Source of the DNA: Bacteroidota bacterium
Lineage (GTDB): Bacteria; Bacteroidota; Bacteroidia; Chitinophagales; UBA10324
Assembly (NCBI GenBank): GCA_018267315.1
Contig: JAFDYS010000009.1
Location: forward strand, 110,786-174,785
Direction of reading: 5' to 3'
DNA: 64,000 nt
A program made the position numbers and the translations under genes. Within the stretch, counting starts at the first letter, position 1. Each line of letters opens with the position of its first letter. A model generated the notes under the pieces. The model saw nothing but the letters and a program-made list of their open reading frames with translations. It made no database searches and was not told where the DNA came from. This document shows positions 55,818 through 59,475 of the stretch, in pieces.

Positions 55818-56600
55818 ATGATGAAGTTTCTGTCACTACATATGCTGCTGCTGATTACCACTTCAATAGGTAGTGCGCAAATCACCGGCAACTTCATACC
55901 CGTTCAGGGAGAAACCATCAACTACATGTATGTACAGCGCGAAGCGCTTTCACCCGGCGCGGCCGATCTCGATTTTTATCCTTTCGTAGTCAATGATTCT
56001 GTCACCAGTAAATTCAATTACGTGTCACCGGCCTCCACGCCATTCGATACGGCATTCAGTATCGCCTCCAGAAACCTGAGTATCCGGCTGGGTGATAACT
56101 ATGCCTATTATGATGCCGGTTCCAATGACGGGTGGAACCTGATCGGCTACGCAGCAGATAACATGGCACTGGAATACGATCACGCGCTGAAACTGTTTCC
56201 GGCAACCATGGATTACAATTCATCGAATCACCAGTTGGTTAGCGACTCTGCTGTGAGTATTTACTACAATGAAGGACTGGAGGTGCACCGCCACGCTCAC
56301 AGCAGTTGCGAAGTGGATGCCGACGGGTTCCTGTCCGTGTCACTTCAGGGCTATGATCCCTTTATGCAGGGCGAGTGCGTGCGTGTTACCACTACTGAAA
56401 CCTACACCGACAGCACCTACGTCAACGGTATTTTTTTCAGAAGCTATGAAACCGAAGTGGTGAGTCATTACTGGATCTCCGTAGAAATTCCCGGTCAGGT
56501 GAATGAAGAAATTCTCTTCGTTTATCAAACCGTCAACTTCAAAGATTTTGCTGACCCGTCAAATAATACCACCAGAACGCTGGTGAGATATAAAAACTAA
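55818..56600 (+). CDS. Hypothetical secreted protein
   Basis: It has a signal peptide 'MMKFLSLHMLLLITTSIGSAQ' and is 260 aa. I recognise no family. Confidence 0.35.
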   Translation: MMKFLSLHMLLLITTSIGSAQITGNFIPVQGETINYMYVQREALSPGAADLDFYPFVVNDSVTSKFNYVSPASTPFDTAFSIASRNLSIRLGDNYAYYDAGSNDGWNLIGYAADNMALEYDHALKLFPATMDYNSSNHQLVSDSAVSIYYNEGLEVHRHAHSSCEVDADGFLSVSLQGYDPFMQGECVRVTTTETYTDSTYVNGIFFRSYETEVVSHYWISVEIPGQVNEEILFVYQTVNFKDFADPSNNTTRTLVRYKN

Positions 56601-56613
56601 ACACAGCAATTGC

Positions 56614-57435
56614 ATGGCTAAAAAAGAAGATGCAGAACCGACTGCAGGTCGTAAAAGGCAGCAACCGCTGCTCGTTTTTTTCTCCGGAGCGGTATTGCTG
56701 CTGCTGGTATTGGCTGTCGTCTTGTTCAAGGATGAAATGACCGCCACTACCTTTTGGGTGGTGCGCCTTATCGCAACATTGGGAGCAGCGGGTTTCGGCG
56801 CACTTATTCCCGGCTACCTGAAAATAGAAGGCACAGGATGGAAAGCCGGCGGCGCCGTGGCCTTCGGCGCCATGGCGTACTTCTTCAATCCGCCGCCGAT
56901 TGATGTTGCCCCGGCTGTAAAAGACATCCTGATTCAGGGAATCGTTTATGTTGATGGAAAAGCACAACCAAATGTGGATGTGAAGGGAAATGAAATCGCC
57001 CGTCAGTCTAATACCGATCTCTACGGAAAGTTCAGCTTCACAGTACCCGAAGACAAGTTGCCGGCCAACATCACCTTCGGCATTCAGTTCAGGCAAACCG
57101 ATTCAACCCTCATGAATATTGACACCACGATCCGGTTTTCAAAAGAAGAATTTTCAAAACCGGATTTTGAAATCAGGTTGAAATCATTGCAGCGGCCACC
57201 CGCTAAGTTTCTGCTGGCAGGGTACGTGTACAATGAACAGGGAAACGGATTAGGAGGAGTAGCTGTAACTGTCAACGGCAGCAGTTCACAAACCGATGAT
57301 GGCGGCTACTTTGAACTTTATGTGATTACTGACCGCGATCGCGTGCCGCTGAATTTTTCCAAAAGCGGATTCATTTCAAAAACCTATTCATACACTCTTC
57401 CGAACCGGAGTATTTCTGTAACTCTGAAAAAGTGA
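56614..57435 (+). CDS. Membrane protein with three N-terminal TM helices and carboxypeptidase-regulatory-like beta-sandwich domains
   Basis: The hydrophobic segments are 'LLVFFSGAVLLLLVLAVVLF', 'FWVVRLIATLGAAGFGALIPGYL' and 'GGAVAFGAMAYFF'. They are followed by 'IQGIVYVDGK...TDLYGKFSF' and 'LAGYVYNEQG..L.GVAVTVNGS...TDDGGYFEL'. Confidence 0.4.
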   Translation: MAKKEDAEPTAGRKRQQPLLVFFSGAVLLLLVLAVVLFKDEMTATTFWVVRLIATLGAAGFGALIPGYLKIEGTGWKAGGAVAFGAMAYFFNPPPIDVAPAVKDILIQGIVYVDGKAQPNVDVKGNEIARQSNTDLYGKFSFTVPEDKLPANITFGIQFRQTDSTLMNIDTTIRFSKEEFSKPDFEIRLKSLQRPPAKFLLAGYVYNEQGNGLGGVAVTVNGSSSQTDDGGYFELYVITDRDRVPLNFSKSGFISKTYSYTLPNRSISVTLKK

Positions 57436-57439
57436 TGGC

Positions 57440-58882
57440 ATGAAGGCAAGGATTGTATTTCTTTTCTGCATCATCTCGCTGCGGCTCACAGCACAGACCT
57501 CCCTTACCGTTTCCGTTTTTGATGATCAAAGCAGGAAGAAAATTTTTCCGGCCATCCTCGCCATCCCCGGTACCACTATTCCCGAATACACCTTAAGCGA
57601 AACCAATAACATCATCAACCTTTCGGACTACCAGATTCTGCCGGGTACATCACTAGTGAACATTACCATCACCAAGAAAAATTATTTCGACTACCACATT
57701 CCGTTGCACATCGTACAGAGCAACAACAGCGAGAATGTGTTATCCATTTTCATGACATCGAAAACCGCTGTGAGCAAGGGCGATGCGTATTACGTACGTG
57801 GGGTGGTGCGCGATTCATCTAATAACTTCCTGCCCAACATTGTGGTGAAACTGGCCGATAAAGAATTCGCCGACACCACTGACCGCTACGGGTATTACAG
57901 TCTGAAAATTCCAAAGAACAAAGTGTCGGGCATGAGCACGTTCAACATTCTTTTTACAGGAGGAAAGAGAGTGCAGAATGGATACGCCACTTTTAAGAAA
58001 CCTGCGTCTTATGACTATCCGCTGGATATGGTGTTGAAGAGGAAGAATACAGCCGATACCATTTCCGGAAAACTGGAATGGAAGAAGGGTGCCTGCCGCG
58101 ATGTGGCGGTAAAACTGATGCAGGGAGCGATTACCTTTTACAACACGCAATCCAACAGCGAAGGACATTTCACCCTCATCATGGACACGGCTGAAATTGA
58201 TCCGGGTAAACCGGCCCGCTTGTATTTCTCCGGCCAGGGCTGGGAAAATGCGGATACCACTTTCATCATCAGAAATCACAAAGGAATTTTTACTGTTACC
58301 CTGCAGCCTTCGGCCAGTTTTTCCCGAAGCCCGCATGAAGTTTTCGCTACCGCCAAAGCGTTTCCGCTATACACTGATTTCACTGTGGTACTCGGCTATG
58401 CTTATCACTTGCCAGCACTGGAACGGCGAATTGCATTGAAAGCATACGGCGGATTCCGCGGGTTCAGCCAGGAATATGAGTTCAATACATTTCCTGATCT
58501 CTCGGCCTCCGCTACCGGCACGGATGATTTCTTTACAGATACCATCACGCAAACTTTTCAGTCGCTGATTGTAGGTGCGGGTGTGACGGGATACCTGAGG
58601 CCCTTTGACTTGAACACGCGATGGAACCCGGTGGCTGAGGTGAACTTATCCATAGGTCCGAAGCAGGGCTACTGGCTCATCGAACCATCTATTTCGGCTG
58701 GCACCTTGTTCAACATCAGTCAGCAAATGGCGCTTTCGCTTCAGGCACAGCTTTCATACAGCCACTTCACGCATGAGTTGCCCTCTTTTCAAACCTTCGC
58801 TGATGCTACCTTTCAAACGAACGGCGACAACATACTGCGTCCGTTCCTGGTACTCACCCTTCAATTTTTTGCTGCCCCATGA
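57440..58882 (+). CDS. Exported protein with carboxypeptidase-regulatory-like domains and a beta-barrel-like C-terminal half
   Basis: It has a signal peptide 'MKARIVFLFCIISLRLTAQ' and 'VRGVVRDSSNNFLPNIVVKL...TDRYGYYSLKIP'. The C-terminal half alternates hydrophobic residues and ends in 'LVLTLQFFAAP'. Confidence 0.4.
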   Translation: MKARIVFLFCIISLRLTAQTSLTVSVFDDQSRKKIFPAILAIPGTTIPEYTLSETNNIINLSDYQILPGTSLVNITITKKNYFDYHIPLHIVQSNNSENVLSIFMTSKTAVSKGDAYYVRGVVRDSSNNFLPNIVVKLADKEFADTTDRYGYYSLKIPKNKVSGMSTFNILFTGGKRVQNGYATFKKPASYDYPLDMVLKRKNTADTISGKLEWKKGACRDVAVKLMQGAITFYNTQSNSEGHFTLIMDTAEIDPGKPARLYFSGQGWENADTTFIIRNHKGIFTVTLQPSASFSRSPHEVFATAKAFPLYTDFTVVLGYAYHLPALERRIALKAYGGFRGFSQEYEFNTFPDLSASATGTDDFFTDTITQTFQSLIVGAGVTGYLRPFDLNTRWNPVAEVNLSIGPKQGYWLIEPSISAGTLFNISQQMALSLQAQLSYSHFTHELPSFQTFADATFQTNGDNILRPFLVLTLQFFAAP

Positions 58883-59475
58883 GAAAATTTCTTCCCCTCA
58901 TCTTGTTTCTATTCGCCTCCTGCAGCAAGGATGTGACACAAATAACCATAGGCGATCCGTTCAATTCCATTTCCAACACCGCTTCGATCAAAATGGTCAG
59001 CGTTCCTTACACTTCAGCGAATTTGGGAATTGATCTAAGAACACCGGGTGATGACAACGCCAATGAACTGCGCGAAGAGTTCGGTGCCGAAGTGCCCGTC
59101 CCTTCCCCCGTCACCGATTCACTTTCTGATGATTTTGAAATTGAATGGCAGCAGGTGAAAGCTAAGTTTATTGCCGCCGGAGTTTTCAGCAAGCCGCCCG
59201 ACATCGGCATCATTGACGGCAACATCATTAACAACAGCAATGATTGCGTATGGCTTTGGAACAGCGGGTTCGGAACCGGCAACAGCAATCACATTGCATT
59301 TGATGACGGGCGCAGTGTGATTGGAATTTCCAACGGGCAACCGGTGTATTCAAATACCCTCCTGCCACTGACGAAAGGAAAACGATATTACCTGATGCTG
59401 TGGGCATGGAATGATGATGCAACCCGCATTGAATTTTCAAGTAAGCTAATTATCATCTACATCAGGGCGCTGTGA
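58879..59475 (+). CDS. Lipoprotein (hypothetical)
   Basis: It has a lipobox-like 'LILFLFASCSKD'. An ATGA overlap links it to the upstream gene, and a GTGA overlap links it to the downstream payload gene. Confidence 0.5.
   Translation: MRKFLPLILFLFASCSKDVTQITIGDPFNSISNTASIKMVSVPYTSANLGIDLRTPGDDNANELREEFGAEVPVPSPVTDSLSDDFEIEWQQVKAKFIAAGVFSKPPDIGIIDGNIINNSNDCVWLWNSGFGTGNSNHIAFDDGRSVIGISNGQPVYSNTLLPLTKGKRYYLMLWAWNDDATRIEFSSKLIIIYIRAL

Follow-up and report, generated by a model that had tools for sequence, protein, structure and literature searches.

Within the 64,000-nucleotide stretch of Bacteroidota DNA analysed here, the whole of which is referred to as the window, lies a complete contractile injection system (CIS) locus, and at the 3′ end of that locus four genes, O1 to O4, are placed between two genes for eCIS_core (DUF4157) proteins. 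An earlier note, made without database searches, had grouped the four as an envelope module and proposed three roles for it: an anchor or conduit tethering the particle to the envelope, a route for export or release, and protection against the second of the two DUF4157 payloads. The comparative and structural analysis presented below leads to a tentative interpretation, held with rather less than even confidence, in which O1-O4 are a lineage-specific trans-envelope accessory complex for an envelope-docked CIS resembling type VI secretion system subtype iv (T6SS-iv). The four genes, taken from the list of open reading frames (ORFs), are as follows.

55818-56600, plus strand: O1, 260 amino acids (aa), predicted exported protein
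56614-57435, plus strand: O2, 273 aa, predicted inner-membrane protein
57440-58882, plus strand: O3, 480 aa, predicted stalk plus outer-membrane barrel
58879-59475, plus strand: O4, 198 aa, predicted lipoprotein

O1-O4 are real, conserved and translationally close-packed genes inside the CIS operon. Only 13 nt separate O1 from O2 and 4 nt separate O2 from O3, and O3 and O4 overlap by an ATGA at 58879. The export signals recognised in the earlier note, namely two signal peptides, three transmembrane (TM) helices and a lipobox, are all kept in the orthologues at approximately 85% identity (comparison loci L002-L004) as well as in those at approximately 42% (L001). Relative to the 85% orthologue, the dN/dS ratio is 0.157 for O1, 0.084 for O2, 0.09 for O3 and 0.098 for O4; such values (0.08-0.16) signal purifying selection and thereby identify all four as genuine genes. 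Two minus-strand ORFs that overlap the module (56539-57096 and 57815-58336) were set aside, as it is the plus-strand frames that are conserved and under purifying selection. In a scan of positions 50500-61500, no terminators were found between the module genes, and sigma-70 promoters were no commoner than in shuffled sequence, although the scan does not cover Bacteroidota promoters. NCBIfam and PADLOC scans returned zero matches for O1-O4, and PDB searches by sequence and by profile yielded chance-level matches only.

Translational coupling, which had been claimed both within the module and between O4 and the following payload gene, stands for the ATGA shared by O3 and O4. The GTGA at 59472, in contrast, is probably a by-product of longest-ORF calling: payload 2 extends to GTG 59472 only in that form, gene callers working on identical contigs place its start at the ATG equivalent to 59511, and in L002 the counterpart of window positions 59472-59510 sits upstream of the payload-2 start codon.

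O2 is predicted to be an inner-membrane protein. Its basic (K/R) N-terminus, which measures 6-17 aa across the family, is followed by three TM segments at approximately residues 19-38, 46-66 and 78-92, of which two show strong hydrophobicity, while that at 78-92 is weaker yet conserved. The cytoplasmic part is consequently tiny, comprising this N-terminus and a loop of about 10 aa. Approximately 180 residues are left for the periplasm, where they are predicted to form two beta-sandwich domains. The second of these is CarboxypepD_reg-like (PF13620/PF13715; residues 202-268, E 1e-6, 28.9 bits, under the Pfam gathering cut-off of about 32), a match also obtained with O2 relatives. The first is matched by the O3 profile (E 8e-8), and a stalk domain thus appears to be common to the inner- and outer-membrane proteins of the module. 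None of the proteins of the CIS structural block has a TM segment, and O2 is the sole protein of the locus with TM helices. Its family forms four clusters among 5.8 billion proteins.

The 3-TM region of O2 also has relatives in phages. It matches phrog_5814 (E 1e-9), a family whose function is not known and the sole PHROG match of the protein, and the domain spanning residues 19-95 (window 56668-56898) shares homology with the TM domain at the C-terminus of a 233-aa accessory protein from a P2 variant (BLASTP E 2e-13, with motifs conserved). The gene for that protein (L039 3461-4162) and one for an 85-aa partner occupy the Z hotspot of the P2 variant NC_070905.1, at the place where reference P2 has fun(Z). 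Its identification as Fun(Z) was ruled out, Fun(Z) of reference P2 being a different protein of 528 aa. Since the P2-variant homologue is not Fun(Z), neither an exclusion nor a holin role can be assigned to O2 on its account.

O3 divides into two parts:

57440-58294, plus strand: O3 N-terminal part, a signal peptide (TA/Q, the slash marking the cleavage site) and about three beta-sandwich domains (CarboxypepD_reg/TTR-like), approximately 270 residues
58295-58882, plus strand: O3 C-terminal part, an 8-stranded outer-membrane beta-barrel of OmpA/OmpW-like fold, as predicted by AF2 and Foldseek

Two CarboxypepD_reg-like proteins had been noted previously, and both give matches that fall just under the gathering score. 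In O3 the match covers residues 119-161 (E 1e-5, 25.8 bits, against the same cut-off of about 32) and recurs in all eight members of the O3 family, the best at E 7e-8. The barrel-like appearance of the second half of O3, also remarked on earlier, is borne out by structure prediction. The full-length protein modelled with 4 sequences reached a pLDDT of only 37, and a crop of residues 286-480 supplemented with distant homologues (8 sequences) was used instead; this model has a pLDDT of 82.3, a pTM of 0.73 and eight long antiparallel strands. Compared with the PDB by Foldseek, it retrieved nearly exclusively outer-membrane barrels, including OmpW, the TM domain of OmpA (OmpA-TM), NspA, OprH and FapF. 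For OmpW, OmpA-TM, NspA and OprH the probability was 1.0 and the TM-scores were approximately 0.5-0.6; the paired values are 0.56/0.61 for OmpW and 0.49/0.68 for OmpA-TM. No curated outer-membrane protein family (for example OMP_b-brl, OmpA_membrane or OmpW) from Pfam or NCBIfam was matched by the eight O3 members, even at E up to 10, and the PDB profile search with O3 was empty. As modelled, O3 nevertheless belongs to the fold class of 8-stranded outer-membrane barrels, since the predicted barrel is closed and antiparallel and is preceded by a Sec signal peptide. The beta-sandwich stalk precedes an even-stranded barrel and is therefore inferred to be periplasmic.

O4 possesses a lipobox, FAS/C, which is kept in the orthologues and would yield a mature protein of approximately 180 aa. 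It has a conserved C-terminal domain of about 100 aa bearing the motifs VWxWN and YYxxxWxWNDxAT. The published signal for export of Bacteroidota lipoproteins to the cell surface consists of K-(D/E)2 or Q-A-(D/E)2 just past the lipidated cysteine. In the window, the sequence C-SKDV contains one acidic residue and is a part match, whereas C-KDEFDD of L035 matches fully and C-KVEEE (L001), C-KKEPD (L036) and C-KKERYE (L038) match partially. The K-(D/E)-rich residues following the lipid cysteine suggest that O4 homologues may be exposed on the surface.

The signal peptide of O1 ends in SA/Q, and an A/Q ending is common to O1 and O3 and kept in their orthologues; this is the usual context of signal-peptidase cleavage in Bacteroidota. 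The protein consists of a domain of approximately 230 aa that belongs to no Pfam family. Homologues of O1 carry the C-terminal sorting domain (Por_Secre_tail) of the type IX secretion system (T9SS) in L036 (E 1.8e-7), L038 (E 1e-4) and L040, and in L040 the O1 domain is additionally fused behind BNR/sortilin and PKD domains. The presence of these sorting domains suggests that O1 is surface-exposed in the relatives concerned. T9SS cargo is also encoded elsewhere in the window. Upstream of the CIS locus, at 19974-28682, lie three genes for proteins with T9SS sorting domains, one of which (21364-24015, minus strand) encodes a sortilin/BNR protein whose domains resemble those found N-terminally in the O1-domain protein of L040. 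The several T9SS-cargo genes of the window indicate a Bacteroidota host, and its CIS genes have their nearest named relatives in metagenome-assembled genomes (MAGs) of Chitinophagales.

The module is rare. The O3 family, like that of O2, forms four clusters among 5.8 billion proteins, and a HMMER search of 1.84 billion representatives with the O3 profile returned 12 proteins, four of which are full-length distant relatives with 24-30% identity that were traced to metagenome or MAG contigs (the source MAGs being GCA_044448625.1 for L035, GCA_014380545.1 for L038 and GCA_049645525.1 for L040). In all, the set is carried by seven lineages, represented by the window, the L002 type, L001, L036, L035, L038 and L040. 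The following arrangements were found.

Window, L001-L004 and L049: TMP-Lys-Pay1-O1-O2-O3-O4-Pay2, followed by PBP1a
L036/L037: (T9SS-CTD fragment)-O2-O3-O4, followed by PBP1a; payload 2 absent
L035: O2-O3-O4-356 aa-CIS ATPase; the ATPase is 54% identical to that of the window
L038: Pvc16-(92-aa fragment of the next CIS gene)-O1-O2-O3-O4-Lys
L040: O1-domain protein-O2-O3, on a contig with 3.8 kb visible upstream

In these lines TMP is the tape-measure protein, Lys the muramidase described below, Pay1 and Pay2 the two payloads, and PBP1a the flanking gene. In five of the seven lineages, genes of a CIS locus or the same PBP1a flank stand beside the set, across at least three gene orders and down to approximately 25% identity. 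The L040 contig shows no CIS gene in its 3.8 kb of visible upstream sequence, and contigs of the L005 type show the module and nothing beyond. No setting of the complete O1-O4 set was shown to lack CIS genes, the surroundings not being judgeable on two short contigs. The co-occurrence with CIS loci that the earlier note had made a check on its proposal is seen for the full set wherever the flanks are informative. The refutation named there, homologues mostly away from CIS loci, is touched in part, since barrels and lipoproteins of this kind also occur on contigs with no visible CIS gene (see below).

The CIS gene order of the window is itself rearranged. The CIS ATPase gene directly follows the TMP gene in most related loci (L011-L032), whereas in the window the ATPase and Pvc16 genes open the locus (32987-35036), which points to a permutation. 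In L038 (3082-4236), Pvc16 is followed by a gene truncated to 92 aa, which matches only the first 83 residues of a 399-aa protein of the window (35127-36326); the CIS there may be decayed or rearranged, or the junction may be an assembly join, and the module is intact. In two Algoriphagus CIS loci (L029 15958-17577 and L031 16185-17804), the large DUF4157 protein is followed by one whose N-terminus, judged by a crude pattern, looks like that of a lipoprotein (…LLVMGC SSSS), and the position of its gene is close to that of the AlgoCIS cargo genes Cgo1 and Cgo2.

Scanning metagenomes with the O4 profile brought up O4-domain lipoproteins outside CIS loci. In L052 (886-3092), a signal-peptide protein with a caspase-like Peptidase_C14 head ends in an O3-like beta-sandwich and barrel (E 1.6e-13 with the O3 profile and E 6.5e-6 with that of the barrel) and is followed by an O4-like lipoprotein (E 1.3e-23); the contig contains no CIS gene. 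Similarly, L043 (2306-4673) encodes a trypsin-like peptidase with a signal peptide and a C-terminal half of barrel-like appearance, then an O4-domain lipoprotein, again with no CIS gene on the contig, and L042, a 222-kb contig (Ga0207695_10000133), carries a weakly similar trio with no CIS genes within about 10 kb. The O4 domain also occurs fused to DUF1565, and O4 relatives were absent from the viral contigs of IMG/VR. By these sequence comparisons, the barrel and lipoprotein appear to be a more general outer-membrane anchoring cassette with exchangeable periplasmic heads, to which the CIS-linked version would have added the beta-sandwich stalk, O2 and O1. The pair looks like a previously undescribed cassette for displaying varied periplasmic heads, peptidases included.

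The module is embedded in the following surroundings.

32987-60821, plus strand: complete CIS locus, flanked by housekeeping genes
32987-52346, plus strand: CIS structural block, encoding in this order an AAA ATPase, Pvc16, sheath and tube proteins, a VgrG-like spike, Baseplate_J, two large baseplate proteins and TMP, with the Cis11 cage and baseplate proteins at 42645-50898
50901-52346, plus strand: CIS TMP
52366-53151, plus strand: Lys, a muramidase with PG_binding_1 and GH23 domains (goose-type lysozyme, with a weak SLT match), by profile matches
53161-55773, plus strand: payload 1, eCIS_core (DUF4157), 870 aa, 67% identical in L001
59511-60821, plus strand: payload 2, eCIS_core (DUF4157), with a likely start at ATG 59511 (436 aa) and a longest ORF from GTG 59472

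Lys has no signal peptide, and the endolysin families of PHROG match it on the binding domain only. All loci in which it was observed carry the module as well, and in L038 it comes directly after O4. Judged from its domains, Lys could be either a release endolysin or a cargo enzyme. Payload 2 aligns with the payloads of L001 in the DUF4157 core alone, from which it follows that its toxin domain has been swapped in that locus. L001 has two DUF4157 payloads after O4, with no extra envelope genes, and a second DUF4157 module stands at the C-terminus of its payload 1 (L001 12052-15566 and 4793-8254, compared with window 59472-60821). In L036, O4 is followed directly by PBP1a, so that payload 2 is absent and the module kept.

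The genes at this end of the locus have diverged unevenly. Between the window and L001, identity is 80% for PBP1a, 75% for Lys and 67% for payload 1, as against 37% for TMP and 40-47% for O1-O4, whose divergence thus about equals that of TMP. Compared with L002 (window 50901-63042), dS is approximately 0.33 for PBP1a, TMP and payload 1, rises to 1.0-1.3 for Lys, O2, O3 and O4, and reaches 2.1 for payload 2. The uneven dS points to a mosaic history, with probable recombination or exchange of alleles in Lys and in the stretch from O2 to payload 2.

Several explanations other than docking have to be considered in the light of these results. The module might serve lysis of the producer and release of its particles, with O2 as a holin-like gate giving Lys access to the peptidoglycan and O3/O4 destabilising or bridging to the outer membrane. 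Free particles of an extracellular CIS (eCIS) have to exit a diderm cell, for which lysis is the accepted route in the literature, and reviews cite lysis cassettes beside the Afp and pyocin loci. Lys would suit this role, being endolysin-like in its PG_binding_1 and GH23 domains, in its PHROG matches on the binding domain and in its lack of a signal peptide. It occurs only in module-carrying loci (right after O4 in L038), Lys and the module are both absent from 27 other CIS loci, and O2, the only protein of the locus with TM helices, has a 3-TM domain homologous to phage sequences (E 2e-13 for the 233-aa P2-variant protein, E 1e-9 for phrog_5814). The export or release route of the earlier note therefore retains the co-occurrence of Lys and the membrane topology of O2, but none of O1-O4 proves holin- or spanin-like: PHROG, Pfam and NCBIfam scans gave no holin or spanin match for them, O2 would be an atypical holin at 273 aa with about 180 periplasmic residues, and O3/O4 are beta-rich with no sign of the coiled-coil or proline-rich character typical of spanins. 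Furthermore, a T9SS-secreted O1 or a possibly surface-exposed O4 has no obvious lysis role, the P2-variant protein, which is not Fun(Z), is without a known function, and Lys might equally be cargo, a peptidoglycan-degrading effector being suspected in Aureispira. We consider this explanation unlikely. Were it correct, the module would represent a previously undescribed kind of Bacteroidota lysis system. The lysis genes of this phylum are, to our knowledge, poorly characterised.

It is distinctly improbable that the envelope proteins shield the producer or its kin against cargo of the same locus that acts in the periplasm (payload 1 or the GH23 muramidase) or against sibling particles. Such a function would account for the position of the genes in the payload region, has experimentally proven parallels in the immunity genes beside some eCIS toxins, and would place protection in the periplasm, where a peptidoglycan hydrolase cargo acts and where O1, O4 and the domains of O2/O3 are located; the elevated dS of Lys and of the stretch from O2 to payload 2, above that of payload 1, TMP and PBP1a, is likewise what allele exchange would produce. 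Against payload 2 in particular, for which protection had originally been suggested, the proposal fails. O1-O4 or O2-O4 persist where its toxin domain has been swapped (L001) or the gene is missing altogether (L036), and the apparent GTGA coupling is probably artefactual; immunity to payload 2 is thereby disfavoured. In addition, L001 has two extra DUF4157 payloads and zero extra envelope genes, and four co-evolving membrane-anchored proteins far exceed the needs of the known single-protein immunities. Lys (75%) and payload 1 (67%) are also much more conserved than O1-O4 (40-47%), the module of L035 adjoins the CIS ATPase with neither a DUF4157 gene nor Lys in the visible stretch, and PADLOC and Pfam gave no immunity match. 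Lastly, O1-O4 might be a passenger: a generic anchor system of the Bacteroidota outer membrane (barrel, lipoprotein and partners), serving a separate function, which has lodged in the variable 3′ region of an ancestral CIS locus and is merely co-inherited or co-regulated. The O3-type barrel with an O4-type lipoprotein on a CIS-free contig, fused to a caspase-like peptidase (L052), the trypsin-like peptidase with a barrel-like half and O4-domain lipoprotein of L043, the weakly similar trio of L042 and the fusion of the O4 domain to DUF1565 all speak for this possibility, as do the 27 CIS loci without the module, the mosaic 3′ payload region, the 3.8 kb of L040 with no CIS gene and the survival of an intact module in L038, where the CIS is maybe decayed (the gene after Pvc16 being cut to 92 aa). 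Conversely, the complete O1-O4 set was not found in any setting shown to be CIS-free, it stays beside CIS genes across at least three gene orders and down to approximately 25% identity, and it is tightly packed in the operon. On this balance a passenger, too, is unlikely.

The docking complex introduced at the outset is favoured by four observations taken together: the module supplies inner-membrane, periplasmic and outer-membrane parts, and in relatives surface parts; its linkage to CIS genes has been kept through rearrangements; it evolves at a pace like that of TMP; and there is a precedent in Aureispira. The close packing of the four genes, the domain common to O2 and O3, the rarity of the O3 family and the survival of the module across changes of payload 2 point in the same direction. 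In such a complex, O2 would sit in the inner membrane with its two beta-sandwich domains reaching into the periplasm, and O3 would be held in the outer membrane by its 8-stranded barrel, its three-domain beta-sandwich stalk pointing inwards. O2 and O3 would probably make contact through their homologous stalk domain, O4 would be the partner lipoprotein of the O3 barrel at the outer membrane, and O1 would be an exported partner, delivered to the surface by type IX secretion in related lineages. The resulting bridge may mark or build the envelope site beneath which a cytoplasmic CIS docks and fires, so that the locus would act as a contact-dependent, T6SS-iv-like weapon, instead of or besides a free particle, with the DUF4157 proteins and the GH23 muramidase as cargo of the docked CIS. 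What the data show is that the genes are genuine and rare, with the topology signals, barrel fold and common domains described above and a lasting linkage to CIS genes; the physical assembly of O2, O3, O4 and O1, the spanning of the periplasm, the docking of the CIS and its mode of action are all inferred. A version that goes further, and which is possible but on the doubtful side, takes O1-O4 as the components of a trans-envelope complex of a new, non-Tss kind, which would serve docking and sensing and would make an eCIS-type particle cell-anchored and contact-triggered. O2 would then be the inner-membrane foot, the stalks of O2/O3 a periplasmic cage, O3/O4 an outer-membrane ring, and the T9SS-delivered O1 a surface sensor or the base of an antenna.

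A number of results weigh against a docking complex. O2 has no cytoplasmic hub, whereas the membrane complex of T6SS subtype iii (through TssN) and CisA dock via cytoplasmic domains. According to the model, O3 is a small outer-membrane anchor barrel rather than a channel; a wide conduit through it for proteins or particles was rejected because the barrel has just eight strands. Of the role of anchor or conduit put forward in the earlier note, the anchor is the best supported of the three proposals, and a wide conduit is unlikely. The T9SS sorting domain is absent from O1 of the window, which stops right after the O1 domain, with O2 beginning 13 nt on, and the sorting domain has accordingly been lost from the window lineage. 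Neither O1-O4 nor Lys was present within approximately 10 kb of the TMP gene in 27 other CIS loci fetched via TMP, which include Ferruginibacter, Algoriphagus and three Saprospiraceae MAGs. The occurrence of the O3-barrel/O4-lipoprotein pair on CIS-free contigs, fused to peptidases, makes it a generic outer-membrane anchor and not a CIS-specific one. In addition, none of the 12 O3-profile matches was identified as Aureispira or Saprospira, and the module proteins are therefore probably not the same as those of Aureispira. Finally, all carriers apparently belong to one order, so that the observations of linkage are not fully independent.

A docking complex of this kind would matter for a gap in the understanding of the CIS subgroup to which AlgoCIS, the MACs and T6SS-iv belong, and for which switches between the free and the anchored mode have been discussed. 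Some members of this subgroup, AlgoCIS and the MACs, act as free particles, and others, the T6SS-iv of Amoebophilus and Aureispira, as guns anchored to the cell; no gene is known to decide between the two modes or to build the trans-envelope structure seen in Aureispira. The module offers a concrete and compact candidate, consisting of envelope genes embedded in a CIS locus, for what sets the mode and builds the trans-envelope structure.

The closest functional comparison is with the T6SS-iv of Aureispira (Saprospiraceae), an eCIS-like cis1-cis16 cluster with a TMP that is anchored to the inner membrane (Lien et al., bioRxiv 10.1101/2024.01.29.577165). By cryo-electron tomography (cryoET), a C6 trans-envelope complex was observed with outer-membrane-associated, inner-membrane-associated and periplasmic parts and an extracellular antenna, as density with no assigned proteins, and the authors named DUF4157 effector candidates and suspected a peptidoglycan-degrading effector (10.1101/2024.01.29.577165). 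The module similarly offers inner-membrane, periplasmic and outer-membrane parts, and in relatives surface parts, beside DUF4157 genes and a GH23 muramidase. The two differ in how they are known, the window system from genes alone and the Aureispira complex from cryoET density alone, so that homology is not comparable, and in that none of the 12 O3-profile matches was identified as coming from Aureispira. Should the docking and sensing version hold, O1-O4 would give a first gene-level handle on the structure that was imaged there.

Among systems with assigned proteins, TssJLM of subtype i and TssNQOPR of the Bacteroidota subtype iii have an outer-membrane lipoprotein, periplasmic domains that form a cage and inner-membrane TM proteins, all encoded in the locus, and the module has such a lipoprotein, periplasmic domains and a TM protein by prediction. 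No Tss family (TssJ/L/M or TssN/O/P/Q/R) was matched in O1-O4 by Pfam or NCBIfam, however, and O3 is an integral outer-membrane barrel, a component absent from those complexes; moreover, the CIS of the window is of the eCIS/T6SS-iv type and not of T6SS subtype i or iii. CisA, the CIS adaptor of Streptomyces coelicolor that is needed for firing, resembles O2 in being a membrane protein with an N-in/C-out topology. Yet CisA is a bitopic protein whose cytoplasmic region measures 285 aa and whose C-terminal domain resembles periplasmic substrate-binding proteins, and it functions in a monoderm with no outer-membrane partners, whereas O2 combines three TM segments with beta-sandwich domains and hardly any cytoplasmic region. 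According to the CisA paper, CisA carries no CarboxypepD_reg domain.

With regard to lysis, holin and lysin genes occur with pyocins, and for Afp an upstream lysis cassette is cited in a review; the statement in the earlier note that classical eCIS loci encode no envelope proteins was thus too strong. The module resembles the tailocin and Afp cassettes in placing envelope-acting genes, together with a signal-less muramidase with a peptidoglycan-binding domain, beside the locus of a contractile particle. The sizes of O1-O4 and their beta-sandwich and barrel architectures are nevertheless unlike those of known lysis proteins, with no holin family match. Nor do O2 and O4 resemble a spanin pair, since the periplasmic part of O2 is a beta-sandwich, mature O4 has approximately 180 aa and a conserved globular domain, and no spanin was matched.

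As for the barrel, residues 286-480 of O3 share the fold of eight antiparallel strands with the N-domain of OmpA and with OmpW, NspA, OprH and OmpX. In contrast to OmpA, the periplasmic domains of O3 are N-terminal, which is the reverse order, and are beta-sandwiches rather than the peptidoglycan-binding OmpA_C; and unlike the other small 8-stranded barrels, O3 has a dedicated partner lipoprotein in O4 and matches no sequence family. The proposed complex would be a new, non-homologous variant among the envelope complexes encoded with injection systems.

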